From: Nageia nagi
Lineage: Eukaryota; Plantae; Pinophyta
Assembly (NCBI GenBank): GCA_050084985.1
Contig: JBITNC010000001.1
Coordinates: 67,084,001 to 67,148,000, forward strand
Length of the DNA stretch: 64,000 nucleotides
Reading direction: 5' to 3'
The position numbers were made by a program, and so were the translations under genes. Shown here piece by piece: positions 7,950 through 61,500 of the stretch (position 1 is its first letter; every line of letters starts with the position of its first letter). The notes under the pieces were generated by a model that worked only from the letters and a program-made list of their open reading frames with translations, had not been told where the DNA came from and made no database searches.

Positions 7950-10100
7950 TCAATTTCATTTCTACAAATCATTTTACACTTTTGGCTCTTTAATCATGCA
8001 AAACAATTTCCTATTATAAAATTTTGGCGATTTAGAAAACAATTCTACTCTCAGCTTATTTTAGAAATCCTAACAATAGCCTTCTTCCGAGGAATTGAAC
8101 TTAAAAAAAAACTTGATAGATGATGTCTTCAATACTTTTCAAATAAACATCCAAATATATTTTCTTCAACAAGTTTGAGGAACTAAGTTGTTGCAAAGAG
8201 GACTAATCTATGATTTCAATAATTTCTTTATCTTTGGTCTTTAGCCCATCATGTTCATCTTGCTTTTCCTTATTCATAATTTTATCACCTTCTCCATGAT
8301 ATTCCTTATCATCTTCACCATTTCTTGATTGAGAATTTTGTCTATTAGATGCTCTACTAGAACTTGACTTGTTTTGTGGAGTTGCATCCTTCTTGTTTTC
8401 AAATCTACTCTAAGTTTAATTTTAGATTAAGTGGTCTCTTTCGCCATGTTTAAAATCAGGATGACATGTTCTACATCATCACTTTGTGTTGTATCTTCAT
8501 CCTAAATCAAAGAACTATATGCAACTTGCAATGCTAACCTTGAAGGTGGATCTACAAGAGTAGGAGTTACATTTGCCCTTATTTCTCCTTCTAAATCAAT
8601 AATTTTAGCTTCTTCACTATCAATTCTACTACTATTGTTCTTTCTATCACTTCTTATATTGCTTTATTCTCCACTTGAGGATGAACTCCCATAAGGTGAA
8701 TTAGGATTTTCCTCTTGAACATTAGTCCCAATAGTTTCTATAATGTTCGACTTTGGTATCTTCTCCTTATTCATAGCCTTCTCTTTCTTGAATCTCATCA
8801 TTTTCTTCTTTGATAATTTGGAATGAAATATTTTGAACATGAAGTTTAGAGATATCATTTCAATACCTATTAATAATCCTCAATGAATGGTATTTATAAG
8901 AAGAATGAAATCTCTGGTAGTATTTATCAATGACACTTTCATTACAATGAGTTTTCCTTTCTAATCATCCCAAAGAAAACGATTTCATCTCTTTTGTGAT
9001 TGGTTATGACTCTAACCACTCCTTCCTTATTTTCTTTTATGAATTACTCATGTAAATGAGAAGCTTGTTTGGAAAATTCAAATAACAACTTGTCACAGAC
9101 ATAACAAGGTAACTTTAAAGGTTTTGAATCAACTCCAAAGAATTTGATGTAAGACACATCAAGTTACTCAAAGTAGAAATTTCCATGACCTTTCAATAAA
9201 GTGATGTCACTTGTGTAATCCTTGGAATATTATCTTCTCCTTTGATTTCTTTGCAAATGGCATACTCCTAATTGCCATTCCTCATTCTGACGTAATTCCA
9301 CTTTTCCTCATTGTATAGCTTAGGATGAGCAATGTAGATGGGAACATTGTTCTTAAGAATCATTTTTCAATTCTTGTGAGCATTTGATCTATTTTTTCCC
9401 TTAAGAGATCGACCAAATATGAATTGTAATAGAATTGGTTGATTATTTCATCACTGATGAATTGGCTCCATCTGATCATATTTCCTTCTCCAACAATAAA
9501 AAAAATACTAAAAACATATTTTTCAAACTTCATCTCTATAGATTTACCAACGATTAGGCATAATACAGTAATAGTTTTACTTATCATATCTTCAAACATA
9601 CATCTTTCAGCTTTCATTATAGCTTAATGGTTGAGCCCATGATGTTTTTCTTCAACCACAAATGGACTAAATCGGTTGGTTTTGTTGATGGTTTGACCCT
9701 GGTGAATTCTTTCTCTTAATCTTTTTCTATGTAGATGATTCCTCTATTCGACCATGTCATTGCTACTTTAATACATTTCTTGATTAATACAAAAATAATA
9801 TTCTGTTGAATATCTTTGACTTCCCTAGTTTAAAAGTTTATATAACAAGCAACTTCAAGAACTAAATTTTGGAAATCTTACTAAGAAGGGAATGAAAACA
9901 ACATTGAACAAAATAGAAGAATGCAACAGGTCTTTTTTCTTCTCTTCTTTAGTAAGGTCTACTTGGTCTCTGATTATAGAAACTAGATTTCAATGATTCC
10001 ATAATAGATCTCTCAAATAGAGTTTTGGCTCTAGGATTTGAAAAAGTTGAAATAAAGAAAGCCTATAGCCTAACGATTATAAAATATATTTTATATCAAG
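7950..10100 (-). pseudogene. ORF-X copy 1 (TE-borne protein of unknown function), decayed
   Basis: Minus frames VVFIPFLVRFP..LEVA (~9850-9905), IRWSQFISDEI..FYYNSYLV (9410-9480) and KGHGNFYF..SYIKFFGVDSKPLKLPCYVCDK (9075-9195). Same motifs and order as the other copies. Candidate LTR start TGTATGATCG (minus) at 10645. Confidence 0.8.
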
Positions 10101-10699
10101 TATTTGTGCAATTCTTTATAATATCATTCTTGAAACTTATAAGATGGATTCCAAGTAGAATTCACTTATCTATCTTTTTGCTTCGAGAATCAATGTCCTT
10201 TTAGAATTCTAATAAGGTATGAAAGATAGAATTTTGAAGAACAAGCTAACAACTAAATTTTATTATAGAATAATATATCTCCTACAAGTTGATAACCTAT
10301 GAGCAATCAAATTGTACTAAGTGTTATCCCTAACAAGAATTCATCAACAGAATGTAAACATTTATGGAAACCTTTATATATCATGATTAGGTGGCTTAAG
10401 TTGTAATACACATTCACCTATCAAATTTATGTGAAACAAAGAAAGGAAAAATCATTGAAGGAAATTCGATAAATCGACAATTTAACCAAGTAGTTGAATT
10501 AGGATAAGTGACATCATTAAGGGTTAACTCTTATGATAAAGGAATTATTTATGATGGAAAACATGATTAAAGTTATCCAACCAAACTAGAGAAAAACTTA
10601 TGTTACAATTTGACAACCACCATGTGTAAAAAGGACGATCATACATCCCTTGTTGTCCGCTTTTTCGTTGACAAAAAAAAATGGTTAACAAACTTCTCT

Positions 10700-17913: not shown

Positions 17914-17945
17914 GAGGGTAGAGCACCCACCAAAAGGGGTGCCTA

Positions 17946-22988: not shown

Positions 22989-25236
22989 GCAAGTACATGG
23001 ATGATGTGATCAAGAAAAAATTAGAAACGTTGCAACCCATAGTTCTTTACTCATAGTTCAACTACGGAAAGCACAACTACAAGAAGTTTGTTTTAAATTT
23101 CTTTAACTTCCAAATGATACTCTAATGAATATCTAGACTCTTGTACATATGGGTTTTGGGCCCTATTTTCTTAAAACCCGAATAAACATTTTTTACCATT
23201 AAGAAAAAAAAAATGTTGTCAACTGTAACCAAATTCCATGTTGCTTCAGGAATGGAAAAAACTCAATTGATAAGTATTCCCCACCTTGATCTGAGCAGAG
23301 CACATGGCTATTTGTTTCTCCATAACTGACTTCAATTCCTTGAAGTAAGAAAATGTTTTATCCTTTGTCTTCAAGAAATACACACATATTTTTCTGGAAT
23401 GGTCATCAACAAATAACATGAAGTATCTAAGGCCATAAACACTAGCTCAAATTGGTCCACATAGATTAGTATGGATCACATAAAGAAGTCCTTAAGCATG
23501 ATGTGTGCTATCATCGAATGAAATTCTATGCTATTTTCCTGTTATGCAAATAGAACAAACACTAGTCGAAGTAAAATATTGAAGACCACATACCATATCC
23601 TTCTTTTGCAAAGTGATTAGGTATTTTGTATTGATGTGTCTGAATCTTTCGTGCTGAAGAAAGTTGACATTTGAAGCATGAACATTGAGTGCTTGATAGT
23701 TGGAAGGTACAAAAATAAGAATAAATATTCTCCCAACTCCTTTTCCTTTTGCTACTATTCTACATCTTTTGTACTTGTCACAAATGAAGCAAACCATTTC
23801 TCCTTTTATAGTATCAAACTCCACCTTCATATTGTTGTCCAGCATCTGCTAATTGATAGGAGGTTCTTTACGAAGCTTGGCACATACAAGAACTCTTTGA
23901 TCTGATAGTTATTCTTTCCAAGTCGAACATGAACATCACCTTTACCTTCAATATCATAAATGTGTTGTCACATAATTGACCTTAACCAGCATTTACATTG
24001 TAATCCAAAGAAAAAAACCAATCATTTCAGCCAATCATGTGCTTGCAAACATCAGAATCAATATACCAAGTGGATGAAACTAAGAGTTTTCTTGATCTCA
24101 TCATTGTTTCCACTCACCTTGAATATATCACTAACATCTTCATTCAATTCATTAAAATCAAATACAACATTGCCTTATTGTTGTCATCTTTGTTTCCACT
24201 CACTCTGATTATGAGGGTTTTGCCAGAATTCATTCATTATTGAACACAAAGGGTTTAAATACAATCTCGGGAAGCATTCCTGTATAATAATGGTATCAAC
24301 CATAAACATTAATTATTAAATATCATTAACTATTGACTAGGATATTATTATTCAATACCATTAACATTATTGTAGATACCTAATGTATTATTTCTTAGGG
24401 CTTTATAATCCAAAAAATTAGAAGGTAGTGGAGCTTCCAAACTGGTGAAAAAAATGAAGGCTCTAAATGGGTCTACAAAACTAAGTATAACAATAATGGA
24501 ACCATAGAGAGACACAAAACAAAGCTTGTGGCAAAAGGCTTCACACAAAGATATAACATTGATTATGAGGAAACCTTTGTATCAGTAGCAAGACAAGAAA
24601 CAATCAAATTGGTTCTTTCTTTAGTTTCCCATAAATGTTGGAAGGTACATCATATAGGCGTAAAGAGTGCATTCTTGAATGGCTATTTGGATAAAGAGGT
24701 TTATTTGCAACAACCTCAAGGCTTTGCAATACAAGGTAAAGAGAATCTTGTGTACAGGTTGATGAAAGCCTTATATGACCTTATGTAAGCTCCAGGTGCT
24801 CAATATTCAAGGATTGATGGGTATTTCCATCAATATGGCTTCAAAAGGAGCAAAAGTTAGCCTAACCTATACCACATGAAAGAGAGTATAAATATTCTTC
24901 TTGTTTGTTTATATGTTGATGATTAAATCTATATGGGTAGTTATTCAAAGATGAATAATGATTTCAAAAATGCGATGATGCATGAGTTTGAAATGGCAGA
25001 TCTAGACCTGATACACTATTTCCTTGGTAAGGAGGTGCATCAAAGAGAAGGAGAGATCTTCATATGCCAAACTAAATATTCCAACAATATGTTGACGAAA
25101 TTTGGCATGAAGATATCCAAACTAGTCCCCACACCAATAGCTCATGGTGAATTATAGGATAAAGATATCGAGACTACACAAGTTAATATGACCACATATA
25201 GAAGCATAGTTCGAAGCTTAATATTTATCACAAACT

Positions 25237-28200
25237 TGTCAGGATGGAAACCTTTCCTACCTGCCTATGATCGCTTACACACGATCGAGAAGGGGAAACC
25301 ACCCAACATTTAGATGAGATAACGTAACTTACCTCCTCTTGAAAGAACTGAAACACGAAGGTTTATTCACGTTCTAATTTTTATGTTTTTTTTCACGGAA
25401 AAGGTGTTTTTGTGATGTTTGAAAGTTGTTTTGGTTGTAGAAAAGAAGAATCCAAAAAGATAAAATAAGCAAATAAAACAAAGAAAAATGTGAGAATGAT
25501 CAAATACTTGTTAGATCACAAGGCAAATATCACAACCTTGGTGAGACGCTTTATAATCTAATTTAAAGTGAGTGACTATTGTCTAATGAGCTTTGAATCT
25601 AGAGCATAAAGTGAAACTGATTGTCGGTACTCTACTAATAGGACAAATACAATGAAAGCAACCTAGCGTAAAAAGTGTGCTTTGGAACCAAGTTTGAATG
25701 AAAGCTTCAAATACAATATAGAAAAGAAACAACCTTAGAATACATTTTGTTTAAAAGTGCAATAGGCAAAAGGTGATAAACATAGAGTAATTAAAATATT
25801 TTTTAAAATTTGAACTACTATTTTTTCCTCAAACTCTCAAGTTTTGAAGGAAAGATACAAAAATATTTGAATCATGTAAGAAGAAGGCCACGAAATTAAA
25901 CACATTCACCACTCCCCGTATGACAAATCTCTTGACAAAATAAGTCACCACTTTGTATTACAATGTAAAAGACTTACAAAAAAGTTTCCACAATTTTCTC
26001 CTTTTACAAAAAATTTGAACTTGTTCACAAAATATTCATTCTACATAAAAGTGACCCCATAGGGTCTATTTATAAAATTTCTAGGGTTTCCTAGTGTTAC
26101 CCTAATTCTATAAAGAAAATATTAAAATATTACATAATTTCCTCTTACAACTAGGCTGATTTTTGGTGCTCTCTTGCCCGGTTGATTGATCATGAGAGCA
26201 AGGTTAGTCAAGTTTTGATGCGCAACTTTCCCGACTGGCTGATTTGTTGGTTTGCAGTTTGCATGTGCGATGCAATGATCATCTCGATGTTGCTCCCCAT
26301 GAAGCTTTCAATGTTTTTGAATCCTGTGTTGAGAATTTCCATAACTCCCTCACTCACCAACATATACGTAATCTGCTTGTCAAATTTGACAACATTAATG
26401 TCAAATTCATCTAGCTACACCATACTACCATATCATTACGGTAATAATCAGCTAGATTTCATTTATTATTGTGGCATAGTACTTACTACATCCATCTTGC
26501 TTGATTAGCCATAGATCAAACTGGTAATCTGCTAGTTGTTTCTTCATGTCATCCTTGAAATTTGTTAAGACTTGGATGAAATCCTGAAACTTTGAAATAA
26601 CATATAACAACCAATCATATTGGTAAAAACAATAATGACAACATTCCAATAGTATTGGCATGCCATTAGCCTTTCTTCTTAGATCATGCATCATTTAATA
26701 GCTATTGCCCCAACTGATAATCAATTCATGGATCATGCCTTGTACGACGAACAATCTACCCTCCTCGATAAAGAAATTAGTTATTACTAGGAATAACTCC
26801 TAAATGGTCAACTTTTTATGTTTGACCAATTCTCTTTTAAGCTCCTTGAACTCTATCTTCTATGACGTGTTTTCCTCTATTAGTGCCATAGCATTTGTGA
26901 CCATTACATGTTGCCTACCAAAAGTTCCTATGTTTTTACACAGCTCTTCCCTTGTTTCCACCACTAACGCAAATCCCCCACTGGAAATTTTTTAATTCCT
27001 ACAACAACGATATCAATGATGATGGAGTTATCCTTCATCGAGACATAAGTGGCTATATGTTCAAGTTCAGTATCTGAATTTTGATTGGTTTCAATGACAA
27101 CACAGGCTTCAAATGGGTCGTACGCTCTCAAATTGTTCAAAAATGCCTTCATATCGAAATTGTAACTTGGTTCAAGATTAGCAGTTGTGCCCACTTGTCT
27201 CTCACAATTCCCTTGATCTTAATCCTCCCTCCCTTTCCTTTCATCTTTGTTTTTACCTTCATCCTCCTCATTTCCTTTATCCCCTCTTGATGAGTAAGTT
27301 ATTCCCTTAGATGCTAAGGTCCTTCTTGGAGCAATTGGTGGAGGTTTTCTCTAAGGTGGAGGTGTAAAGGTAGGTCTTGTAGCTTGTACGTGTTCTTCCA
27401 CAGTAGGAGGATCTATGGTCAGTATCTCCTCGACTGATGAATCTGATTCATTATCTGAGATATAAGGTATTTCTAATATTTGCCAATCTTCCAAGGGTTC
27501 TCTTAAGAGTTGTCCTTTTGTCAATCTCATATCCATCCTCGCTTTCACTAGAAGACGGACGAACTGGAGAACTAGGGCCAGAATAACATAATTGTCCATC
27601 TCGAGATGGACCTTTAGGAGGGTCTACCACTAGCTTCATGAAGCATTTGTATGGGTGTGAAGTGTTACCAACCTCTTTAGTGTTCTTTATCTCTTGTGAT
27701 AATCCTTGTATGGTCTGATCAATAGTTTGCTCTGGTTGAACAATGATTGTAACATATTGACGAAACTACCCTTGTTTCAACCTCACATAAGGTGAAATTG
27801 ATGGAGGCACATACAAAATCTAGGGATTCCCTTTAAAGATTATCAAAGGATGTAATCTTGCTATCGCATTCTCCTTTGGCAGACCACTTTTCTACTTCTT
27901 CTTGCTTATTGTCTTTAAAAGCTTTTTTTCGTTGCCAAGTCCTTGTTTACTTCATTGATCTACTTTGTATCATTTACATTTATGTACCTCTCGAGCTTTC
28001 CTAAGGACTGGTGGCACCTTTCATACACCAAAGTTTCTACAAAGTTCATTCAGTATGAATCGATCACTTGCATAAGGAGGAAGTCTGAAAGGTGGCTCAA
28101 TTGACCCGTAGACGCTCATGTATATGGCATCTCATTCTTTTAGATAAAAATCTCCATGCCCTTGAAGACCTTGGTTTGTCACCTCTGATATTATATTCAT

Positions 28201-40490: not shown

Positions 40491-40699
40491 TAGAAAAATC
40501 TTCATGCATGCCAACTTCGAGGAAGTCATTAAATAACACATGCAATCTGTAAATCAGCCACCATGATTCTAGTTATTTTCCAAAATTTTAAAAAATTTTG
40601 TGCTCAGTCAGCTAGGACAGTTGCGCACCAAAACTCGACTAAACCTACTATCATCATCAGTCAACCTGGCAAGTAGAGCACCAAATGTCAACTAACTTA

Positions 40700-41418
40700 G
40701 TTGTAATGACAACTTGTAATATTTTAATGTTTTTTTATAGAATTGGATCTTTTGTGGCTCTTTTCTAGTTTGAAAGTTTTCATTTCTTTCATTAAAAACT
40801 TTCAAGGTTTAGGAGAAAATTGTCGTTCAAATAGTCAAAAACACTTCAAATTGCTTCTAGTTTGCTACTTGTTTGCCTCTCACATATGAAACAAATGCTA
40901 AGTTCCTTTGATTGCATTGGTCTATTTCACGGAGTACAATAATCAGCCTTGTATTGCCTTGAGCTCTATACTCAAATATAATTGCACATTAATAGTTTAC
41001 TTTGAGCTAGATTGACTGAATGGAGACTTCATGATTGATTCGGAAAAGAATTATTTTAGACAATGCTTTGTTGTGACAATCATGTTGTGATCTAACCAGT
41101 ATTGAATCATTCTCATTTATTTGTTTTTTTTTTGCTTGCTTTCTTTTTTTAAAAAACCACAACTTTCAACTATTGCATAAACACCTTGTCCCTATAAAAA
41201 AACGTGAGTTAATAAATACTACCTCAATCAAATCAATTGAGTTAATTCCCCAAAACCATAGAAAATTGTGCTCCTACAATGTGAACACAAACAAACCTTG
41301 AGGTTTCAATCCTTTCAAGAGAAGGTAAGTTGCGCTAGCTCACCTAAATGTTGGGTTTCTTTCCCGTCTTGATCATGTAGGCGGTCGAAGAATAAAAGGA
41401 AATATTTCCTTCCAAACA
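40700..41418 (+). repeat. R/U5 end of an LTR related to unit A, in opposite orientation
   Basis: 41283-41418 (CTTTCAAGAGAAGGTAAGTTGCGCTAGCTCACCTAAATGTTGGG...TTCCAAACA) matches the reverse complement of 25237-25375. 40880-41020 matches ~25550-25680. Confidence 0.85.
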
Positions 41419-43922: not shown

Positions 43923-45919
43923 CTGTCGTAGATGATCAAGATCCCTCAACCTGAAAGCCCTCCTAGAAGCTACACCTAGGAGACATGCTTAGCGCCGCTA
44001 AGTTTTCTTGTCCTCTGGACGATATAAAGTATAATAATAATCATGTATATTCAACAATAACGCTCCAATTTCTCCTTATACACTTGCTTTATCTGGATCT
44101 CACACAAAAGTCATCACTTGCGATTCCCACAATCATGATCGAGATCTCCAAGTACAATAATAACACCTAATCTAAGCTTGGGAAGGAGACGTCCCACTTG
44201 AGGCTCATAGTGGGATCCATTGACCCATTAAGTCTTCTATCCCAAGATACAAATATCAAATTACAATGCATTAATAAAATATATTACAAGAGGAACCTAT
44301 TAGATTCCAAGACTAATCTCTACCATGCAAGGAAGACGTCACAACAAGTTCAACGTTCGAATCGCTTCAAAGAGGAGCGGGAAGGAATTCTAATTGTCAT
44401 TACTCTAAGATAGGACCAATGCAATCAAATAGAGATGGAAGGTTCAATGTGAGTCAAACAAGATTTTGGATGAAGGATCTAGATAAATGTCATCAAATGA
44501 AAAATGAAATAGAATACCCTATCTACTTGTATGTTGAGAATCAAGCAACGAACATACTTTGCTTTCAAACACTTTGTGAAATGGAATAAGGATAATTTCC
44601 CTAAAAGTCATACTGCACAAACCAACTATGAAAGCTCTTAAATATACAATTCACAACACCAATATGAAAAGTTTCAAACTCAAGTCTTTGAGCATAACCA
44701 CTTTGTATTAATTTTGAAGAAGGATGTGCAAAGGTTTACAAATGTGCTCTCCACTTTCTAAAAGTTCTTCAATAATGAAGTTCTTAAATTAATGACACCC
44801 CATGTCTCTTATAGATTTTTGGAAACCCTTAAAGTGAATTTCGAAACCCTAATCCCTAATTACAAAATCAAAAGCTAATTACCAGCTAATTGAATACTAA
44901 TTCAGATTAAATTTTGACTTAGTAGAAATCCAATAAGTAAGCCAAAATTTGGCTAAAATATTAAAATTTGCAAAAATAGACCCCATCTATTCTAGCCATG
45001 GCAAGAAGATTGGTTGCACATGTGTTGCCGTTTTAGCTTTAAAATCTTCTCCCATGAAGGTCACAATATTTTGTATGACGCAATGGATTATCTGAGTGTT
45101 CCTTCATTTGATAGCAATTACTCCAAGATGGCTTTATTTTTCTAACAATTTCGTTGCACTATGCGACGAGTCTAACTCCTTTCATCTGCTTTCCTCTCCA
45201 TGAGCTATGTGGATCCTTTGGACACAACTGTTTCGTAATAGTGGCATGGATTGTTGTCATCACCTTCAAACAAAGGTATGTGGTATTCATATTCCTTTGC
45301 TTGTTCGCTAATAATGGCCTTGAGTTGAGTCTTTATGTCAATGAAATTGGTGGATTTGACTTTGATATAGAACAAGTAATCATAAAGCTGGAATCAGTCA
45401 TGAAAAAATCTAGCAGGATCAAGTGATGTGAAGCCTTTCTCTGTAATCAAACATTATGGAGTATCCCTTCTTCCATCGAATGATTAAATTGTCTAGTCCT
45501 TCCACCAGAGAATGTAAACCCTCCTCCTCAAAGTAAATTATCTCATATGGTGCCTTTGAAGGATATATGAAACTTGTATTTGGTATAAGAGATCTGATTA
45601 GCTTGTGTTTCTTTTTTAAAAGAAATAAAAACAAGTTTTACCTAGTTTTGAAGTGCCTTACTCGATTATGGGGGCACATTCAAAGCTGCATTGTTACCTG
45701 TATACAAAAATATTAAACACCTAAAAAAAAACCAAACTAAAAAAAAACCATTCAAAAAACAAAATAACATAATTTAAAAAATAACTTAAAGATTATACCT
45801 GAAATGTTCACAACACCCTGTTTCTTAAAAAATTTTTTCAAATCCCATACAAATTCAACTCTAAAAAATCTAAAAGCAAAAATGTATTAAACTAATGAAT
45901 GGATAAACTAAAATGAATT

Positions 45920-46362
45920 AAACCCTAAAAATTCTAAACCCTCCAAATTTTAAACCCTAAAAATTTTAAACCCTAAAAATTTTAAACCTTAAAAATTTTA
46001 AAAATTTTAAACCCTAAAAATTTTAAAAATTTTAAACCCTAAAAATTTTAAACCCTAAAAATTTTAAAAATTAAAAATTTTAAACCCTAAAAATTTTAAA
46101 CCCTAAAAATTTTAAAAATTTTAAACCCTAAAAATTTTAAAAATTTTAAACCCTAAAAATTTTAAACCCTAAAAATTTTAAAAATTTTAAACCCTAAAAA
46201 TTTTAAACCCTAAAAATTTTAAACCCTAAAAATTTTAAAAATTTTAAAAATTTTAAAAATTTTAAACCCTAAAAAAATTTTAAACCCTAAAAATTTTAAA
46301 CCTAAAAAAATTTTAAACCTTAAAAATTTTAAACCTTAAAAATTTTAAACCCTAAAAATTTT
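45920..46362. repeat. Minisatellite of AAACCCT alternating with (AAAAATTTT)1-3
   Basis: About 18 perfect and 4 variant AAACCCT units, each separated by 9-bp AAAAATTTT spacers. Confidence 0.97.
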
Positions 46363-48912
46363 ATACCAAAACATGCACACGACTTGGAAAAAACAAAGTT
46401 ACTTGTTCTGCCTGAAAGAACAGGTTACCCCAAGCACTCACATCGAATATGGTCCAGGGCACAATAGTCAAAGATGCATGTTCTTACCCGTATACAAAGG
46501 AAATTCACACCATCGGGGTTCTTCTCCACAATGAAGAAAGACTACAAATGTGAACAAAAGAGAAGAAAGATCATGAATGCAAGGACAAACACAAGGATAA
46601 GTGCATAGGAATATGAAGAAAGATGAACTTATGAAGATATCACCAGTGATGCAGTGTCTCGACAAGTCATCTCCTGTTTCATTAAAAAAGTGTATTCACT
46701 ATCAAATCGGTCAACAAATTGCAATCTATGCTCAAATCGCTACCAGGCGAGAGCAAGAAACTGTAGGGTCTTGGTGGAAAACTCAATGGAGCATGGATAA
46801 ATGAAGGGAGCGCATGAATACATAGGCCTAACCAAATGTCCTAGAGACAAGCTATACTCCCCAGAATACATTCACTTGCATGCAAATCATGCAAAGAATA
46901 GCTTAATCCACTTCAACAAATATTCAATATCCAATTTTAGAAGGAAAAACTATTCAGACTTGCATAATCCCACAAATGCGAATCTCCATAGTATTAACTT
47001 TATAGCACTATTCCCAAAAGAAATAAATTTATAATGATATTCAATGATATAAGCAATAACATTCCTTGCCTGATAGCAGTATCCTCAACATGATATTCAA
47101 AGTATAGCAGAGATGTAATGATACAAAATCATAACAAGCATATTATGTAGCGAACTTCTATGCGGTGGAATGCTGAAATCTTAAATATGCAAATTCACAT
47201 ACATGCAAAATCTTCACAAATAAACAATGATATATACAAATGGCACATATGCTATATATTCTTCAGTTTTTCAAATGTAAAGAAATTCCTTCAATTCTTA
47301 CAAATGCAAAACCTTATGCAATCACTGTTATGCAAAAATACCGAATGCCAAAATCCCCTTCTAAATGGCCTCGATGGAGTACATATAGGCCATCACAAGT
47401 GTTACCCTAAAGGCATCAAATCCGATATGGTGCACACACATGCGACACACATACCGATACAAAATTAGATTGTTCACGTAAAACCATGCAAGTGGCACAT
47501 AAAATTGACATAATAGAAATGCCACTATCAAAAATGAATTTAATCTATGCAGAAACAAATCAATATGCAGTAAATGTCTAACATCTAAACTGGCAAGAGA
47601 AAAATCTCATCCCTGCAACAGTCATAGACATAAATGAGTATGACAGATTTGATCTAGCGACAGCAAAACCTTATCCCTACACCAATGAAATAGGGTAACT
47701 GAAGTCTGAGCATAACAACAACTATCATAAAATATACATTTAACAAAAGAAACATAATCGAGACGGAATCTACGAGTGGATTGGATCTATGCCAAATTTG
47801 ATCTCGTATTTGTAGAGTTCAACTCCTCGTTGGTGGACCGTACGAGTCAATGGTCTCCTCCAAGAAAACCATAGTCTTCCACATGCCCTTGGAGTTCATG
47901 CCAACAATTTTGCCATTTTGCCTAAAATAGTTTTATTGGTATGTTTTTCCTTCCGCACCCAAAACATGCACAACACTTGAAGGAAACAATGTTACTTGTT
48001 TTTGCCTTAAAGGACTTATTACCCCAAGCGCTCACATGGAATATGGTCTTGATGGCTCAGGAGTCAGAGATGCATGTTGTTAACCGTATACAAGGGAAAT
48101 ACATGTCGGAGATCCTTTCCTTAATGAGGAAAGACTGCAAATGTGAACAAAATAGATAAATGCAAGGGAATGCGAGGAAAGGAAAAGACCTATGAGAACG
48201 TCATCAGGTATACATGCCTCGGCAGGTCATCTTCAAATTCATTAAGGTCAATACACTCACAATTAAACATTTAGCAAAGTAGCAAATATGCTCCAATCAC
48301 TACCAGACGAGAGAAGGAAGCTATAGGATCTTTATGGAAGACTCATTGGAAACGGTAAAGATGAAATGAGGGCGTACGTGTAGTAATCTAACCGAATGAT
48401 ATAAAGAAAATTTGTAGGCCTCAAAATATATCCACTTGCATGAAAACTATGCAAAGAAGGATCAAACTGTTTCACAAAATAATGAATATGCAGTTCATAG
48501 AAAGAACCATTTAGATATGAATAATCCCTAGAATGATGTTCTTCACAGTATAACATTATGATTTTATTCCTCTAAACGAACACATTCATGATGATTTTCA
48601 ATAACAGAATATGCAGCAATCTTCTATGCAATGGAATGTGAATCTTATGACATTGAAGGCCGAAAATGATTGTACAAATAAACTCAATAGCCTCAATCTC
48701 AAACTGCAAGAACTTCACTATATAATGCTTTCATCATATCCAAAAGTGCAATGCAAAATAGTACAAAGATCATATGCATAAACTCTTCATGTCAAAATCC
48801 CTCATGCAAAAATCTCGTATGTCACAATCCAAATCTAAATGGTCTGAGTGGGGTATAAATAGGCCACTAGAAGTGATGTCTTAAAAGCATCAAATCTGAT
48901 ATGGTTTGCACA

Positions 48913-49001
48913 AAAACAACACACATACCAATACAAAATCAGATATCTTCATACAAAACAACACACATACCAATACAAAATCAGATATCTTCATACAAAA
49001 C
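48913..49001. repeat. Perfect 42-bp tandem duplication
   Basis: AAAACAACACACATACCAATACAAAATCAGATATCTTCATAC x2. Single copy in the homologous C region (~47440-47480). Confidence 0.95.
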
Positions 49002-49299
49002 TATGTAAGTGGCATTCAAAGATGACAAAATATAAATGCCACCGCCGATATGCATCTACTCTACATTTAATCTATGCAACAAAAAATCAGATATGAAATA
49101 AATAGTTTGAAAAGCTCCAGCATCTAAATCGATGGGAGCAAAACTTCATCCCTGCACTGGTCAGAGTCATAAATGAGTCTAAAGATTTGATCTGGTAGTA
49201 GCAAAACCTCATCCCTACACCACTCCAATCAAAATAAAGTAGAGTTTGACATAACCAACATAACCATATGTATGGAACACAGAAAAAAGTACCACAAAT

Positions 49300-51690
49300 G
49301 AAGTCTACTAGTGAATCACATCTAGGCTACATCTAATTTGGCGCGGACAGAGTTCCACTCCTCACACACCCCTGGAGATCATGCCAACAGTGCTACCATC
49401 CTATCAAAAGTATCCTTCAATATTCTTGGATGTAGCCTACATATAGTCTATCCAGATGACCATTTGCCTCTTGTGGATGATGCTCTGCCTTCAGCAAGTT
49501 GAGATCATCAACTTGAAGATGTTCCTGGACTAGGTTCTCGACCTCAACCAATACCGCTTCCTTTTTATTGACAAATTTATCTTCCCCTTGGAACTTGAGT
49601 TGATAAAGATACTCACTCATTTGTTCCTCAACCTCCTTTCACAAGGGGATAGGACAGCGTTGCACATCTCAATTGCATGGTTAAATCAATCATGGTGATA
49701 AGTGAACTCATGAGAGGGGGCAAACTTTTATGGGTTATTAGCGAAAATATGTTGCAAATGGGAAACGTTGGGAAGTTATCTATCCAATGTACTGAGGTGT
49801 GCTGAAATATACGTTTTCAGATCTCTCATCTCAACACCCTCGGCAAGGAGTTTGTAAACCTTTGAAGGCAATCTTTCAACGGCCTCCATCACTTCATTCT
49901 TAAGCTGCTCCTTCATGAATTCTGATCCCTCATGGAAAGAAGTCTGCTTTTGTAACTGTAAAGGAGTGGTACTAATTTTTTGGAACTCTTATATGATCTT
50001 CCTGCTAGCCGTGAGTTCCTTCTTCAACTTCTTCACTTCCCTTTTGGCTTCATAGCCTTCTTGCTCCATGACTGCAACATTTTGGGAGACAATATGTTTT
50101 CTGGTTGTTAACCCTAGCTTAACCTATTCTTGAATGTCTCAATGACGCAATCCTCTGCTCTCCGAGGTGCTTCTCCTTGAGTAAAAATGGTGATGGAAAT
50201 GTCCTTTCGAGAGGTGGAAACGAAAGTGTCCAACCTTTGAATCTTCTCCCCTCTTGAAAGCACTTCTTCCTCATCATCAGAATGCAAGTCTTGGTCTATA
50301 ACACAGGCATCCAAGTTAAGATTTGGATGTTTGGTCATTGGTCGAGGGGAAACCTTTGAACCAGCAATCTTCCTTTGTCAATTTTCTTGACCTCTTTCAC
50401 TAGAGTGGTCTGCACAACAACCATTTCCTTGCCATGATGTTCCTCCTGCCTTATCTTCTTCTCATCACTCATCTTGGTAGAGGACTTATTGAAAGAAGGG
50501 GACTTCTTCCAATGTTCGATAGGAGAGGACTTGTATGCAACCACCTCTCTAGCCGTTTTTTTCCAATTATCCGGACGTCATCATGATAGGTACCAACGTC
50601 ACTATCCAATCATCAGGGATGGTTTCAATCTCGATTTCATCAAGTGCTAAGCACCTCCAGCTATGTCCTCTTGCTCATGCATATTGGCAGCATTGCCAAC
50701 ATCATCATCTTCTTCTTCTTCCTCACTATGACTCTCCGATTCTAAAGCAGAATACTCCACCGTAAGGTTAGGATCTTCAATCTCTTCATCGGAAGAAGAA
50801 GAGGAATGCTCAAAACCAAAGCTAGAACTTTGTTGCAAAGCGGGAACTTTCATCTAGCAAACTCCTTGGATTAAACTTTGCCATGTACCAACAATACACC
50901 AAATAAGAGTTCATATAGAATCTCTTCGAGGAGCCGAAAAGGACAATTGATAACGCAACGCATCACTAATTACCCCAGCCCATTGGATAGGTCTCCCCAA
51001 ACTCAACAATAAAACCTATGCACTTTCTCCAGTACTTAACATCATTTTATTTACTCGTCACTTTGGACAACAGGGTGATCAATTTTGCTGCAATTGTCAG
51101 GAATTCATCTCTCCGTGCATTGATCAACCTCTGCCCTTGAAGGTTTTGAAACTTTTAAGTAAACAAGGTCAAATATAGTCTCCAGGTCGGGCCATGGATT
51201 CAAGAAATTCTTAAGAATGGGTCAAAGGACAATCGTCCCCATAACTCTTCCAGCCAAAGGTTGCTTCAATTCCAGTAGGAGAAAAGTCCTTCATCATGTT
51301 GGCTTATGATCCTGCAGAACCATTGTGCCATAATCGCATTTCTTGGCCACTTCAGTATCCAGGTTTGGGAAAGGTATTGCAAATGGAATTATGGCGGCAT
51401 TGAACAATTCGAATGTGCAGATGTGCTTCTCGAATAAGACCTCTTTGCTGATGGACAATGTGGAGGCTAGGGTCAGAAAAAGATCAAGGCTTACCCAATT
51501 TGTATCACCAACGAGAAATGTGTTTCCCCTTGAATTTGGCTTCAAGTAGCACTGTTTTTGTCTTCTGTTAAAAGTCTATTAGGCTATCCTTCACAAGCCT
51601 TGTCATATGGCTTTTTGTTACATAACTTTCGAACAACTAGCTCGAACTTTCCAGGCTCTCAATGGAGGTGTTTTGACATTTGAAGCCATG
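49300..51690 (-). pseudogene. ORF-X copy in unit D, internally deleted
   Basis: AIIPFAIPFPNLDTEVAKKC; IQWAGVISDAL..FYMNSYLVY; acidic SSSSDEE..EEEEEDDD; tail YLYQLKFQGED..KKEAVLVE. Lacks blocks present in C (~54810-55435 and ~55450-55750). Confidence 0.88.
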
Positions 51691-51949
51691 AAAGGTATTA
51701 CTCACCTCCTCTTTCAACTCCAGACGTCTGACCAATCTAGGCGCACAGTTCTGTATGAGTGCAAAAGCACAACTTGAAAAGTATGCGCTAGGCCTAGGGA
51801 CACTTTAGTCTTTCAAACACAATTCTTCAATCCAGATTTGGTCTCAAGTACTGCCTTGAAGGTATGCGACTAGCTTCAAGGGTAGATATGAAATGCCTTA
51901 GCCAAAAAAGGCTACCTCAATGTCCAACGTCCCTAAATCCTCCTTTCCT

Positions 51950-53070
51950 CCTTGGTCGCACATTTCAAAGTGAGTGCCTAGCCATGCAAGAGAAATGGTG
52001 CGAGAGAGTTCAAAAATGAATATGCAATGTTTCTCAGTGCTTTTCTTTCCTTGGTCACATGTTTTGAAATGAGTATCCAAGCATGCAAGAGAAATGATCC
52101 GACTAAGAAGAGGGGTGATTCTGGAATGATGTTCGAAATACTAAAAAAGGGGGTGATATTTATACGTTTGTATAATTGCCAAGTGTCACTTCGTTATTAA
52201 GCTGTCTAAGGGTCAAATAGAAGGCCCACAACAAGGTCGCATGTTTCTTGGAGTGTGCAAAAGGACGGGTTGAAAATGACGTGACTGGCAAAGGGGAGTG
52301 ACTTGGCCAAATTTCACATTGATTTTAAAGACTTAGCCCCTAGTCACACCGTTTTGGGTGGGTGCCTAAAGCACATGCTTAAATCTTTGAGCCTGAATCC
52401 TGGCATATTTCCTAAAGCCTTAGCCCCTAGTCACATGCCGAGGAAGGAGTGCTTTTTATCCTATTCTCCAACGCTTTGCTCCTTGTCAAATTTGCACACA
52501 GAAATGAAGGGGTCTGACTTCCCTTTTATAGCTCTCTAGGTGGGACACATGTCACCATGTGATAGACATACAAATAGGTACAATGCACAGGCTCCCACTT
52601 GTCAACGCGGCTCAATATTTAGACAATTTTCCTCTCTTCCCTCTAGTCGCATGGTTTTGGACAAGTGCAAAAGGACTCATATAGATCCTTGCGACAGCCT
52701 TTGAGGCTCCAAAATTTCACTTAGTATCCCCCACATTGGTCGCATGCTTTTTGGTGAGTGCTAAAAGGACTCATCTCAAAACATGTGACAATGAGAAAAA
52801 AATACTAAAGGGACTCCATGAAATGCATGCGACAACAATATGCATTGAAAAAACGCAAAGTGTGAGATGATGTCCAACCTAGTCACACCTTTCCTAGAGG
52901 GTGCAAAAGCACTCCCTCAAAAACATGCCACAAGCTGCAAATGGGGTTCCTACAACATGGAGGCCCTCAAGATGCTTTTGAACCTGATGCAAGTGACAAA
53001 AACGAGGAAGGTTGATTGGTCGCATTGCTTGAGAGTGATGCAAAGCACTCATTGAAAAACATGCGACATA
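51950..53070. repeat. Dispersed ~50-bp palindromic units in the U3 of D
   Basis: GTCGCA..TTTT..GAGTGC-AAAA-G(C/G)ACTC..AAAACATGCGAC variants at ~52235, 52341, 52644, 52738, 52880 and 53018. Confidence 0.75.
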
Positions 53071-53219
53071 CTGAAAAATACAAGATTTCGACTTCAACTA
53101 GAATGAATATGCAGTTTAAACACGTTCCTAGGATTAGACCGAAAGATGTGCATCTTCTTTGATAAATTTTTCTGCAATTCCTCTTTGCTTTCATTGGGAG
53201 GTGTTGTGTACACACAAGA

Positions 53220-56200
53220 AGTCCCCGATCTGCTCGGATATAGCCTACATCTGGTATTTCCAGATGACCATTTGTCTCATGGATGATGGATGTTATGCTT
53301 CAGCAAACTAAGGTCATCGAGGTCTATATGTTCTTGTATTAGGATTTGAGCCTCTACCATTAGCGCCTCTTTCTTCCTCACGTTGTTATCCTCCACTTGG
53401 AACTTGAGTTGATCGACATACTTGCTCGCTTGCTCCTTGACCTCTTTCCTCAAGGGGTTTCTTAGTTTCAATACTACATTACACTTTTCAAGTGCATGCT
53501 TCAGCCAGTCGTGATGGTAAGTGAATTGATGGCAGTAGAACAATTTCCTGGGCCTATTAGCGAGAAGTTGTTGCAAATGGGAGACGATGAGGAGGTAGTT
53601 CTCCAACTTGTTGAGGTGTGCTGTGATTTGTGCTTTAAGATCCCGGATTTCCACACCCTCTTCTAGAAGATGATGATAGTTTCCATCATCTCCTTCTTCA
53701 GCTACCCCTTCATCAACTCCCAACCTTCATGGAAAGAGGTCTGCTTCTTTAGATCAAGAGGGGTGGTACTGATATTTTCAAACTCTTTAACGATTTTCCT
53801 GCTATCCTCGAGCTCCCTTTTCAGTCTCTTAACCTCTTTCTTGGATTCATAGCCCTCCGGTTCCACGACTTTCAACATTTTGGGTTACTATGTGCTTTCG
53901 GGCCGTCAGTCCCAACTTCACAGGCATCTTAAACGTCTCTATCATACATTCTTCTACCCTCTGAGGATATTTCTCTTTTGAATAGCAATGACTGATGGAG
54001 ATCTCCTTTCAGGAGGTCGAAACAAATGTGTCAACCATCCTGATCTTCTCACCATCGAAGGCTCCTCTTCTTCATCTTCACAACACAGATCTTGGTCTAT
54101 CTCCTCATCCTAAGTCGTACTCATGCTGAGGGCTCTAAGGCAAGCATCTAAGTCAAGGTCTGGATGTTCGATTGTTGGCTGAGAAGGAAACCTCTGCACC
54201 AACAATAGACCTTTGCTGACCTTCTCAAACTGTTTGGTCGAAGTGGTCAGAATACGGGCCATCTCCTTACCTTGGTGCTTGTCCTGCTTTCTCTACCTCT
54301 TTTGCTCTTCAATCTCCCCTTCGTCTTCTTTATCTACGCCATTGCCAACTATTGATATGCCTTTGTCCTGTGGTTGAAGGGATCTTTCATGGAAGGTTCT
54401 TTTTACAAGGGGTTTCTAGGAAGACAAAGGTGACCGCATTCTTTGCTCGGCAGGAGAGGGTTTTGGAGACACCCACCTCTTTGCCACACTTTACTCCGAC
54501 GATTTGGACCCTGTCATCATCATAGGTCCCAACGTCCACAATCTCATCAGCATCTGGGACAGTATTAATCTTCGTTTCATCAGGTGTGGAAGACCCTATA
54601 CCTACATTATCTTGTTTGTGGTACTATTCGTCAACAACAGCATCATTATCATCTTCTTCTTCTTCACCATGGCTTTCTTCATCACTGCTCTGGTTCCCTG
54701 ACTCTTCATCAGAGCCTTGTACTATACGGTTGGGTTCCCCATCAGTCTCTTCATTGAAAGAAGTGGAATGCTCAGAAGAACTAGAACTTGGTTGCAATGG
54801 GGAAACCTTTTCTCCACATCCAGGATGACGAATGGGTGTGGAAGGAATGTCCTTTGTGGGTGAACCATCGACATAAGCCTCCTCCAACATATCCAAGGGG
54901 ACACTGCGATAGAAAACATCTCTCAAATCGACCATCACCACACTACATTTACTAGGGCTTGATGTGTGCTCCCTTGAAACTCCTCTCTTCCTGATAGGAA
55001 GTAAGGGCACGCTGCCTTGTGGAGGCGCAGCACTAGCAGGCACGTTTTGATCGTGAGACATCTCTATATTTCACCTTAACAATGTGTTGTCTATGAGGTG
55101 GCCTTTCGGCTAGGAGGGGCTCCTTCTTGCTCAAAAGAGCATCTATTCGTGCAATTTCTTCCTCACTCCGCACATTTCGATACTTCTCCACATACCCTAA
55201 CTATTTATGTTGAAAAGCGATTGGCTTATAGAATGAGATGTTGTAGAAATGGGCAATTACACCTCTAGGCTCATAATTTCTATATGTTGCCACTATCAAG
55301 AAGATATTGTAGCAGCTCCTTTTTCATATTGCTGGCGTCAACCCACAACTAGCAAACATAACTTGCAATGGAAATGGGCAAGTTAATGGTTGCATTCTTC
55401 TATATCCACACTCTTTCCTTCATAAACAACAATTGTCTAGCAAACTCCATGAGAATAAGTCTGTCGTAGCATATTTGGGCTGGAGGAGGGGTTGCTCTTT
55501 GGAAGCATATACCCTGATGAATATATGGACCTCATACTGCAGATAGAACTCTCCATGTACGTTAATGGTCTAAATGGCTGCATCAGAAATCCTCTTAAAT
55601 ACGAACTCCCCTTTAATGTCTTTGTAGATAGAATATGCCCACCTATCATTTCTCTAATAGAATTGGGCAAATTTGTTGTGATACAACTACTTCAGGTATA
55701 CATGCCACACAAGAATGCCTTTCTCTCCCAAGTATATTTTATCTGCAAGCTCTTTGGATCTGAGTTTGCCATGTAACAACTGGTACACCAAATAAGAGTT
55801 CATGTCAAACCTCTTCGACGAACCAAGATAAGCTAGCTGGTGGTGTCGGGCATCACTCATCACCTTAGTCCATCTAAAGGCTCTCCGCGAAATGATTACT
55901 ACAATAAACCTTGTGAACTATTTTCTGTACTTGGAATCACTTTTCCTAACCTATAACTCTGGACAACAAAGTGCTCAACATGGCCACTGTAGGTAGGAAT
56001 TCCTCCCTACAAGCATTGACCAATCTTTGGCCCTGGATGTTCTGATACTCTTCAGATACCCATGGGGAATGTAGTCCCCTTGCCTAGTAATGGAATCATG
56101 AAACTCCTTAGAACTTGCTAGTGTGTAGTCATCCTCATATCTTTTCCAACCAAAGGTTGCTTAAATTCCATCATGGAAGAAATCCATGATCACATTACCT

Positions 56201-56598
56201 TCTGTGTCCAAGAGGACTCTCTTATCAAATTTACATCTCTTGGCTACCGTGTAGCACAAGTCAGGAAATGGTACTACGAAAGGTATCACAGTGCCATTCA
56301 AAAATCCACAAGTGTGGATGAGTTCATCTGGCAAGTCCTCCTTACTATTCCAAGCAATGGAGGCCATGGTTTGGATGGGGTAAAGATTTCTGCTATGTGT
56401 ATCTCCAACGATGTTGTATCTCCCCTTGAACTTGGCTTCAGGGAGCTTTGGTCTTTCCCTTATTCGAAATTCTACATTGCTCTCTGTAAAGAGCCTAATC
56501 ATCTGGTCTTTAGTCACATGTCTCTCAAATAGCTGCCCTTGAACTTTCTTGGCCTTTAGTAGGGGTGGCTTCACTTTGGAAGACATTTGAAAAATCAT
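53220..56598 (-). pseudogene. ORF-X copy in unit C (last codons continue at ~47933-47760)
   Basis: ORFs 56161-56598, 54624-55061 and 53277-53723 are pieces of one frameshifted gene. Motifs IPFVVPFPDL, FRWTKVMSD, FDMNSYLVY, HGEFYLQYE..IFIRVYAS; acidic tract; helical tail. Confidence 0.9.
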
Positions 56599-57569
56599 GG
56601 AGAAAAGGATCCAAAAATTCTGGAAGTGCCTAAAGAATACAACAAGGACTAGTCAGAATACCCTGAAAAATGCAACGAGAAAGAATCAAACATGAAGTTT
56701 TGGGTTGCAAACATCTAGGAACATGAAGTTTTGGCGTCTCACAATCAGCCACTGTCAGCTTGGAACCCTGGTCGCACGGTTTCAGATGAGTCCTTTTTCA
56801 CTGCCTGAAAAGCACCCGACTGGGTCCTAGGTCCCTTAGTCAATTTTAGAGCATCATTTCTTCATGTCACACCTGGGCGCATGGATTTAGGTAAGTGGAA
56901 AACCATGTACTGCAAAGCATGCGCCTTAGATTCCAAGGTTCAAAATGGAATGCCTTAGCCAAAATGACTAACTGGATGTACAAACAACACCCTAACTCCT
57001 TATTCCTCCCTGTAAAACCAATTTGAATGAGTGCAAAATAATGTGCTCGAAATGTTGCAATTAAGGATCTGGATGCAAATCTACAATGAAGCAATGAAAA
57101 TGACCAAGGGGTTGCTTAGTACCGACAGCTTTACGGGTTGGCATGTATCACCTCTTGGTTGGCTGAAATTGAGGTCAAATGATGGGGCTAGGGTGAAGGG
57201 TGCACGGTTTCAGGTGTGTGAAAAAGCACCCTTGCTCGTACCCTTTCAAAGCATACGCCTTGAAACATGCACCTGGCCCTCTCTTCTTGAATTCCAACAC
57301 TTGGTCAATTTTATCCCTAGCCTAAGAGGTTTGGGATTGGGCGCTTGGTTTTGGAGGGGTGGGTTTTAATGTTTCCCAGAATGGTGCAACTGGCCTATGG
57401 CACACCTCCCAAGACCAAAAATTTCAAAAAAAAAAAGATTAAAAAAATGTACTTTGAAACAAGGCACATGTTTTAGAGGACGTGCTTTTTCTCCTTAACT
57501 CCACACAGTTCTCCAAAATTAACCTTCCAAATTGAATAACTAAGGCTGACCTTCCTTTAATAGCCTTCA

Positions 57570-58590
57570 CGGATGGGACAGGTGTCATCTTGTGATTGGC
57601 GCCCGAAGGTGTCAAATGCATGTATCCACACTTGTCAACATCCAGGCCCAACACTAAACCAAATTTTATTCCTCGAACTTGGTCACAACATTTAGGCATG
57701 TCTCTCAAAACGTGCAACTAACTGTTTAGGACATTACTTCAAAAAAGGTTAAGTATAGGACCTCTTCTACCTTGGTCGCACTGTTTTGGGGACATGGAAA
57801 AGCATGTCCCTGAAAACATGCAACTAGCCTTTTCACATGCAAAGATAAGTGACTACAAAACTATTCTAGGTATGCGGCTAGCCTTTTTATAGACTTCTCG
57901 GATTGGACAGGCGTCATCTTGTGATAGGTGCCTGAGGGGGTCAAATGCATGTATCCACACTTGTCAACATCCAGGCCCAACACTTAACCAAATTTTATTG
58001 CTCGAACTTGGTCGCACCATTTAAGCATGTCCCTCAAAAAGTGCAACTAGTTGCTTTGGTACTTTACTTCAAAAAGTTAAGTATAGGACCTCTTCTACCT
58101 TGGTCGCACCGTTTTTGGGACATGGAAAAGCATGTCCCTCAAAAAAAGCGACTAGCCTTTTTACATGCAATGATAATCGACTACAAAAATATTCTAAGCA
58201 TGGGACGTCCACAACCATGGTCGCACCGTTTTGGGGATATGCAAAAGCGTGTCCCTTAAAACATGTGGCTAAGCCTATTCATCATGATTTTGCAAAAATA
58301 TGCTACGTATGAAAGCTCTGAGCCCTGGTGGCACCATTTTGGGTACATGCAAAAAGAATGTTCCTCAAAACATGCGACTTGCTGGAAAACATGATTTTTC
58401 TCGATAATTTGAACATAACGATTCCAGCATGAAGATGCAATGAAATAGGGATGGGTTTTTCAACATGAGGAACCTGAAAATGCAATTTTTAAGTGCTAAA
58501 AATGAAGATATGAGTACAAAAATGTAGCATAAAGTTCGTCCAACCGTTTAGGGGATATGCAAAAGTATGTCCCTCAAAACATGAGACTAA
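57570..58590. repeat. ~329-bp direct duplication plus ~50-bp palindromic units in the U3 of C
   Basis: 57571-~57875 resembles 57900-~58205. GGTCGCACCGTTTTGGGGACATG-(G/C)AAAAG-CATGTCCCTCAAAACATGCGAC variants at ~57773, 58009, 58101, 58218, 58327 and 58540. Confidence 0.9.
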
Positions 58591-61500
58591 GAAAAGATGC
58601 GATTTTCTGATTGGATTTCATAATGTTAGTGCAGATTTAACATGTTTCTTGTAGCTAGACCAATGATACGTGCATTCCCATAGACAAAACTTCGACCAAT
58701 CATTTGTGCTTCATTTTATGAGGGTCCTCAAAATTCAAAAATTTTGGGGGCTATTGTGCAAGAACAAGCAAGTATAATGTTCAAGTCAACCTACTTATTA
58801 ATGTCTTCAACTACCAAGTTAGCAACCTTAACTTCACTAGCAATCATTCCTTGACTAGCCACTTCCTTATTTACGTCCCGGATCTCTAAGTTGAATAAGG
58901 TGCGAGATTATCTCAAAGCCCGTGCATTTATAATGATGTTGTGCTTCATTCTTGATGAACAAACAATCTCGGCTGGGACCTCTTTTGTTTCAACTGTGAC
59001 AACGAATTTTATAGCCTTATTCTTTCTCGAGTAGAGCTTGTCCTTGTAGGTGACTTTGCATATAGTAGTAGTGAGAGTATCAATTTGTCAAAGTTCTTCA
59101 TTTTCAACTTCGAAATCTTCTCCTTGCAGAGATAATTTGAACTCAGGTTTCCCAGCACTACAACCATGTTGAAGCGTTTGGGTTTCTTATGTGGATTTCC
59201 ACACGGGACCATCTCTCCTTCTTCAATGATATAGGTATCATGCTCTACTTGTCTTTTCTTCCTACGTACGTCATCATTTTCTCTGTCTTCTTCCTAATTT
59301 CCATCATCTTCCCTAGAAGATGATGCCATTGTCCTAGATCTTGATGTACACCTTCTAAGGAGCGAATTTTGGGATGCTACTCCTACTGCTTGTTGTACAA
59401 TCATATCAATCACGAGATTGTCTTTATCAAGAATCTCTATTGCTTTACCAACTTCTACTCTATTAAAGGCAATGTCTCAATTCACTTCCATGTCGATGTT
59501 AATGATTGCATTAAGATCCATCTCTTCATCAAACTTTGTCGAGATACTCGATCCATAGTTGTCAGAACTTGATGATGATGTACTAGGATTCGAATTCATG
59601 CGAGCGCCACTTCGATTCAAATCTTGTGCGAGATCTATCGTATTCTCCAAGTGTTTGAACAGTTGAGGGATCCAGCATAACATTAGTTTCAATAGTTTCT
59701 CCGGAGATACTATTGGTAGCATATTGCCCTTTTTGTCCTTGCGTCAGGGTCACTGAGGGTGATATTATAGGGATAACATACCCATGGCATGGGGGTACTA
59801 TGACCTGTGCCTCAGCTTTCAGCCTAGCAACTTTTTTGGCTTCTCTTTGTTTCTCTTCTTTTTTCAATTCCCTCTGAATCTGTTGAACCTACAAGCTATC
59901 TTGAATGTTCTTGTACCTTTCTATATTGCTGACGAACATATGTGGATATGATAAACCCCATCTTTTCTCAAAAAACGCATCAATCACTCCATCAAGATCA
60001 TAGTGATCTACAGCTACCTCAGTTTGGAATTGATAAACTGCCAACTCCTACTCTATCAAGTTGATTTGATGCCAAGTAGTGCATCATACATTCCAATGAT
60101 AATTGGTAATTGGTAAATGGTAAGTTGGTGAAGATTTCTTTGTTGATACCTTATCATGTAGCCTAAGAAAGTGTCTAGAAAATTCCATGAGAATGAGTCG
60201 ATCACTTGCATAGCAAGGCAGCTTGTAGGGAGCTTCTTGGAACCATAGATTCTGATATACAAAAATTCTATGTCTTCCATTTAGAAGTCTGTATGTCCCT
60301 TGATACCAGTAGCAACTTCATTTGATATTCTACATAAGTTGCTTTTGACCATGATCTCTTCATATATTTTTCCATCAAAACCCGTATTCATCATCATCCA
60401 ATTACCGTCATTCCATCTGTTGTGAGAATAGAACCATAGGAAACTCTCCCATACTAGGTGCGTGGGGTCAAATAAGAATTCAATGTCAACAATGGAAGTT
60501 ACCCTCTCCCTACTGTGAAAGAGTAGGAACACTAGGTAAGAGTTCATGTAGATTTCTTTGCCGGCCTGCACGGTTTTCAACTATTGGGCCAAACAATCGC
60601 TAATCACTCTACTCCACCTTATGCCTTTACCGCTACTAATTATATCTATAAACCTTGCAAACTCTGGCCGGAATTTGGTATTGTCTTTTGTTCGATCAAT
60701 ATGGAGTGCAGTCATATAATATTGGAAACTATAGGATAATTTTTTTCTCTTAAATTTCACCAAGGTTTTCCCAATGATGTGCTTACAATCATTAGCTAAC
60801 CAAGCTCTAACCAAATCACTGCATTATTTTTATGCAAGAGTCCATGTCTTCTATTGTCGTAATGCTTTCCCAGTTCATAGCACATCTCTAGGAAGGGTGA
60901 GGCAAATGACACCATCGATATCATTACTAGTAAGGATGATCTCCATGTGTTGTTTACTAGTAAAGCAAGATCCATACATTGTATCTTTGTCAATGTTTTG
61001 ATTGGGTCCAAGAAGTTACAATCCGTATATCCACCTTCATTCAGACGATCAATGATATTTGCTATGGGCACCACCGGCTCTGTAGTATGTTCAAGGGTAA
61101 TGTGGCTTTCCATCATGAGCCTTTTTTGCTTCCAGGCTTTGATCATGTTAAGTGAACAACACATTGTTAGGAAAGCCCTAGCAACTATCTGACACTTTTA
61201 GGCAGAAAGAAAATATTGGAAATTTTCATAAGTGTGCCATCATTGAAAGTGAGTGAAATTGGAATGATACCAAGGTAACTAACTCTAAGGGGGAAGTGCC
61301 TTGGGAAGACTTTGGGAAAATTTGGGATTTTTGGAATATTTTTCGACATTTTTGCTCACAAATGGAGCTTGCTGGAAAACAATAGACTTATCATAATTTT
61401 GCCAATGAAAGAGAGGGCAAATTAGGAAAAATGGTCAAATGATGTTGGAATTGGTTTCTAACACCTTAGGTAGATGGGGAATGAAGGGAGAAGATGTTTT

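Follow-up and report, generated by a model that had tools for sequence, protein, structure and literature searches.

The VANC proteins bind short motifs that are repeated in the non-coding parts of their own element, in a family-specific manner (PMC5735166); for VANC21 (DUF1985, PF09331), which is encoded by VANDAL Mutator-like transposons, a coiled coil is predicted, and VANC is described as dicot-specific (PMC13547354). According to published work, the plant mobile domain (PMD, PF10536), which occurs as PMD-A in Gypsy/Ogre elements and in the host proteins MAIN and MAIL1, belongs to the structural family of VANC; it has been surveyed in angiosperms, and whether it arose in a host gene or in a retrotransposon is described as a fully open question (PMC5418596). 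Here, we describe ORF-X, a protein family of which six copies, A to F, are located in a stretch of 64,000 nucleotides (nt) from the conifer Nageia nagi (contig JBITNC010000001.1, positions 67,084,001 to 67,148,000), referred to as “the window” at its full length. The complete chain of claims, that ORF-X is a decayed, formerly selected gene in solo long terminal repeats (LTRs) of a probably gymnosperm LTR retrotransposon, with the VANC/PMD fold and an anti-silencing function, has in our judgement an even chance of being correct.

Ogre, Retand and Athila elements are known to carry extra open reading frames (ORFs) that encode PMD, Transposase_28 or Athila ORF1 and are located before or after the polyprotein (PMC6317226, PMC7264820, PMC11963269); those of Ogre are classed by their position up- or downstream of it, not within the LTRs (PMC6317226). 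The antisense TRP28 (Transposase_28) ORFs of Retand, a lineage reported only from eudicots and monocots, lie beside family-specific repeat arrays and have a proposed regulatory DNA-binding role (PMC11963269). Like PMD, ORF-X would be an accessory ORF of LTR retrotransposons, and like the Retand TRP28, Athila ORF1 and Transposase_32 ORFs, it is an extra ORF beside family-specific repeats; however, the latter are located between pol and the 3' LTR, and ORF-X has none of their Pfam matches. Regulatory genes within or overlapping an LTR are found in retroviruses (mouse mammary tumour virus sag, human immunodeficiency virus nef, foamy virus bel); these would resemble ORF-X in their location in the terminal repeat, but are far shorter, and no homology is claimed. 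The gymnosperm TatII and TatIII lineages are large non-chromoviruses with 5-bp duplications, some of them with extra ORFs, and with an average size of 12.8-14.7 kb (PMC6317226), a length into which two 6-kb LTRs and pol would hardly fit, and no reverse transcriptase (RT) is linked to ORF-X.

The original prediction, made by a model from the letters alone, had proposed one protein family in six copies, and this has been borne out by comparisons inside and outside the window. All of the ORF-X places are connected by tblastn inside the window, and the segment 28030-29070 of copy B aligns significantly with the other copies (E 6e-29 with E, 3e-27 with F, 2e-13 with A, 3e-9 with C and 7e-7 with D). 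The same segment, with stops as X, was used as a phmmer query against 1.84 billion proteins, where 55 proteins were found at E <= 0.001, one of which was discarded as false. A profile of 56 database relatives and zero window rows, the relatives themselves having been found with copy B as the query, gives 15 domain matches at exactly six window places (independent E-value, i-E, 6e-13 to 1e-116), with N-domains at 9020-10019(-), 28033-29067(-), 39916-40488(+), 50837-51578(-), 55141-56529(-) and 59940-61104(-); there are zero matches in the reversed window and zero in 5/5 codon shuffles. The shared motifs that had been named are present, in the order in which they had been given. The copies whose limits are not listed with their units below are the following:

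7950..10100, minus strand: ORF-X copy A, the most decayed; N-domain at 9020-10019; outer limits taken from the original prediction
26139..29090, minus strand: ORF-X copy B, decayed; N-domain at 28033-29067 without frameshifts, with stops
58767..61164, minus strand: ORF-X copy F, N-domain and linker, interrupted by unit E
44997..45548, minus strand: displaced helical tail of copy F, from tblastn and tail comparison

The displaced tail of copy F is recognised through the match of 44990-45605 to the tail of copy B (tblastn E 1e-5). Two of the copies differ from their first description: copy C, held to be N-terminal only, does have the N-domain, but this joins directly to the C-terminal end of the tail (40441-40674) after an internal deletion, followed by 3' non-coding DNA in common with copy B; copy D, placed at 49300-51690(-), is present, but lacks ~0.9 kb that holds the GHG...PxxLPxY module, i.e. 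the second half of the domain. Among 30 relatives looked up, the only species-named one is the Taxus chinensis hypothetical protein KAH9296670. A more distant branch (P0022, P0034, P0045, P0055 and P0060), with ~20-30% identity to the window copies, has longer unbroken frames, and some of its members are located on 14-35 kb contigs.

The copies lie in discrete, solo-LTR-like units, a point that the original prediction had missed. The units are 5.3-6.7 kb long, and the same layout is seen in all units with mapped ends: 0.9-1.5 kb of non-coding DNA, an ORF of ~3 kb, and then 1.5-2.8 kb of upstream DNA with repeats. They are listed below, with the strand where one is assigned:

25237..30969: unit B (5,733 bp) with the termini TG...CA, similar to a solo LTR; interrupts a Copia RT/RNase H gene
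25232..25236: AAACT, the target-site duplication on the left of unit B
30970..30974: AAACT, the target-site duplication on the right of unit B
44109..63986: unit F, own DNA ~6.7 kb (44109-45605 plus 58767-63986), split by units E and D
46366..47930: unit E, left remainder (3' non-coding), homologous to D 47959-49412
53217..58766: unit E, right part, ORF-X 53217-56598(-) plus upstream region; right end 58766 placed by its end motif
47931..53216: unit D (5,286 bp), lying within the tail end of E and holding ORF-X at ~49400-51689(-)
39704..41418, plus strand: unit C, in inverted orientation and with an internal deletion that joins the N-domain (39916-40488) to the tail end; terminus 41418
41482..42402: further F-like right-end remnant without ORF-X; weak, E 2e-5 to 0.04

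The Copia RT/RNase H gene breaks off at 25236 and continues at 30975, with unit B and its ORF-X copy in between; of the 961 end pairs tested around the junctions defined by Copia, the ends of this unit alone combine TG..CA with a 5-bp identity (~0.008 expected). Unit F is flanked by exact ACAAA at 44104-44108 and 63987-63991; its left end reads AGTCA where unit B has TGTCA, its left part aligns with that of unit B (score 78, against a shuffle maximum of 44), and the right end of unit B recurs at 63986 (81% over 47 bp), while the left end of unit B recurs inverted at 41418 (72% over 143 bp). Unit E interrupts the tail of F and is in turn interrupted by unit D in its own tail end, with an overlap of 4-5 bp between its two halves against D. 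The TG...CA termini are exact in B, with the CA end also present in C, D, E and F and the left TG lost in D and F; the 5-bp target-site duplications are exact in B and F, degenerate in D (AATAG / AGAAG), and were not found for A, C and E, nor were both ends of A, the other end of C and the left terminus of E. Held-out end profiles point weakly to the predicted unit ends. Terminal direct or inverted repeats above shuffles occur in neither B nor F; the one score above shuffle, in unit D, is attributed to the palindrome array of D. Seven pol queries gave no match in any unit, and gag, looked for through Pfam only, gave none. Between unit F and the F-like remnant, at 43074-43799(-), lies a frame of 242 codons with only 4 stops and no Pfam match.

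TG..CA ends with a 5-bp duplication and without an internal repeat are what remains when the two LTRs of a single element recombine; from these features and from the missing pol, we therefore infer that ORF-X was located inside a very long LTR. The units are, with good confidence, solo LTRs, and the position of the gene inside a giant LTR is likely. What weighs against this is that no parent gag-pol element, primer-binding site (PBS) or second LTR has been found, sequence-collection scans having given no locus. The same lack of a parent element, PBS and second LTR would suit trans-mobilised elements of another kind, either complete non-autonomous ones that have no terminal repeats or another transposon of the integrase type, as would the identical layout of all units with mapped ends and a ~3 kb gene, which would be unusual within an LTR. 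We nevertheless consider this explanation unlikely, as TG..CA with a 5-bp duplication is the signature of LTR integrase, the units have no terminal inverted repeats, the reverse transcription of LTR elements requires terminal repeats (textbook knowledge), and Mutator-type elements make longer target duplications. The units also exceed the ~5 kb quoted as the LTR maximum, which favours non-autonomous elements, while the same source gives the 5-bp duplication for most LTR-retrotransposon lineages (PMC6317226). A VANDAL/Mutator carrier does not agree with the TG..CA ends and the 5-bp duplications, and no transposase was seen in the units; in this respect ORF-X differs from VANC, which is carried by a Mutator DNA transposon.

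The protein-level selection that had been proposed to precede the decay is evident in the codons. The ratio of nonsynonymous to synonymous differences (pN/pS) is 0.24-0.57 in 6/6 comparisons, with synonymous sites close to saturation, and the third codon positions have diverged far more than the first and second ones. Judged by these codon patterns, ORF-X is a gene formerly under strong purifying selection; the ORF-X lineages thus diverged while still selected, and decay came after insertion. The 3' non-coding parts of D and E (46366-47067 against 47959-48627) are 73% identical, a figure that is raised by gapped alignment; such identity, despite the near-saturated synonymous sites of the ORF, hints at constrained cis elements. 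Purifying selection, together with a relative annotated as a Taxus hypothetical protein, would also be expected if host genes or pseudogenes had decayed here as a cluster, but the copies bear target-site duplications from insertion, and lie within one another and within a Copia gene, among Copia, Gypsy and LINE remains; the duplications largely refute a host-gene cluster, which is highly improbable, and the nested, duplication-flanked units agree with the transposable element (TE) accessory protein that had been suggested.

The acidic linker that had been described is present (up to 15 D/E per 30 amino acids). The helical tail is shared in part: the tails of B and F match each other, but those of B/F show only weak likeness to those of D/E (i-E 0.046), and the tail of copy A is not confirmed. 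As had been noted, there is no clear transmembrane motif: the maximum 19-residue hydropathy is 1.47 in the 14 in-frame pieces (of 17 pieces, 3 were wrongly framed and ignored), which contain no transmembrane helix of the kind sought for an Env-like ORF, the tails being partly covered.

Copy B was among the sequences folded, with X at the stops; the top structural match of ORF-X is VANC21, with 220-234 residues aligned at 6-8% identity and a modest Z, and DUF1985 is the lead from the atlas comparison; Foldseek gave no match, and no PMD structure is among the structural matches listed. At the sequence level, PF09331 matches 0/61 members of the ORF-X alignment at E <= 10 with HMMER filters on, and PF10536, Transposase_28, Transposase_32 and ATHILA ORF1 match none of the 61. 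The PMD-like, anti-silencing-like character that had been suggested has support at the level of the predicted fold but not of the sequence, and the suggested likeness to Transposase_28/32-type ORFs finds no Pfam match. On the predicted models, ORF-X quite probably has the VANC/plant-mobile-domain fold, its link to PMD being indirect, via VANC. ORF-X and VANC21 are alike in being TE-encoded, in the short repeated motifs of the adjacent non-coding DNA and in a helical, oligomer-like tail, while ORF-X has an extra C-terminal module past the aligned part. By sequence and by carrier, ORF-X is not a member of VANC/PMD, and that it worked like them is a prediction. The modest Z and the lack of Foldseek and Pfam matches could also be read as a chance match of VANC to an unrecognised gag, env-like or transposase gene; this is very unlikely, since no capsid, integrase or transposase is among the structural matches listed, the in-frame pieces contain no hydrophobic segment, and Pfam recognised RT, integrase and SH3 pieces elsewhere in the window, but nothing in ORF-X.

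The repeats upstream of the ORF, and one array at unit E, are listed below:

51742..53068: upstream of copy D, imperfect palindromes of ~50 bp (GTCRCA...TGYGAC) in an array
56769..58589: array of the D-type palindromic unit, upstream of copy E
61900..63525: different dispersed repeats, spacing ~300-660 bp, upstream of copy F
45918..46367: tandem array at the left end of unit E or across it, 28 copies of a 16-bp unit with AAACCCTA

The GTCGCA sites, which form the arms of the ~50-bp imperfect palindrome, are concentrated upstream of D and E (15/17 in the window). With a palindrome profile built from D, 9 places are recognised in the DNA upstream of E (E <= 0.002) and one weak place near C, with none near B or F and none in the reversed window; the ungapped palindrome count is barely above shuffles. 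By analogy with the VANC motifs, the palindromes of D and E are suggestive as candidate binding sites. The AAACCCTA of the 16-bp array is presumably a telobox, or telomere-like, word.

On these grounds, the following mechanism may be proposed. Integrase would have inserted a complete element, both of whose LTRs were very long, and LTR-LTR recombination would then have removed the internal gag-pol, leaving one LTR with its gene. The retrotransposon would have expressed ORF-X from this LTR; the N-terminal ~300 amino acids would form a DUF1985/PMD-like DNA-binding domain, the helical tail would mediate oligomerisation, and the acidic linker the recruitment of chromatin or transcription factors. 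The subfamily-specific upstream palindromes would serve as the binding sites, as short repeated motifs do for VANC, and the protein may bind the upstream repeats as a dimer, given the palindromes and the helical tail, and counteract the silencing of its own subfamily by the host. Frequent recombination of the long LTRs would yield solo LTRs that carry the gene, attract further insertions and then decay, each keeping promoter, binding sites and factor gene together until then. The models make ORF-X a likely self-targeting, DNA-binding anti-silencing or activating factor; granted both the solo LTR and the fold, anti-silencing is on balance the probable role. The same anatomy and fold would suit another task, that of a transactivator, an integration-targeting factor or an RNA-silencing suppressor instead of a remover of DNA methylation, which we regard as fairly unlikely.

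The rest of the window (~36% G+C, CpG- and CHG-depleted, without a long ORF) is a pile of decayed elements. Nested Copia pol fragments, RT and integrase pieces among them, occur in both orientations, at 52-1600(+), 3465-3620(+), 5942-6187(-), 12515-13396(+), 13399-16390(-), 23249-23848(-), 24429-25236(+) and 30975-31380(+). A decayed Gypsy pol at 33700-35950(+), with RT, integrase and an SH3_Tf2-1 match, shares the strand of copy C and precedes it by 4 kb, with no link shown. A decayed LINE-like element was seen by eye at 17000-21700(+), with what we take to be a zinc-knuckle ORF1, an endonuclease and an RT. Two tandem arrays between two Copia fragments, of 59 bp (1825-2076) and ~123 bp (2589-3378, the richer in GC and CpG), are probably part of an inserted element. 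At 22130-22528, an open antisense frame runs over an acidic/basic coding-like stretch of the plus strand, and self-complementary stretches of 60-120 bp are located at 4515-4577, 39308-39366 and 63004-63121.

An incomplete literature search has turned up neither a gene inside a plant LTR nor a gymnosperm PMD/VANC-like TE protein, and an earlier description under another name is possible; as far as that search showed, an LTR that itself contains a long gene would, if true, be a layout new for plants. The ORF-X units, which make up 46% of the window, would escape RT-based annotation. Tentatively, and with more doubt than confidence, a high-copy gymnosperm retrotransposon clade may have moved a ~1000-amino-acid anti-silencing gene of the VANC/PMD fold, together with the palindromes that its product binds, into an LTR of 5-8 kb, so that solo-LTR formation, the main deletion route of the host, would leave a self-contained anti-silencing cassette; this would be a deep, retrotransposon-borne PMD/VANC branch that predates VANC and MAIN of angiosperms and could be a cause of the bloated genomes of conifers. 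Sequence-specific anti-silencing has been shown only for VANC of dicot DNA transposons; a diverse, Pfam-invisible gymnosperm family with a predicted VANC fold in LTR-type units would, if true, extend anti-silencing to the retrotransposons of giant genomes, and would make the ancestry of PMD/VANC, host gene or retrotransposon first, a testable question.
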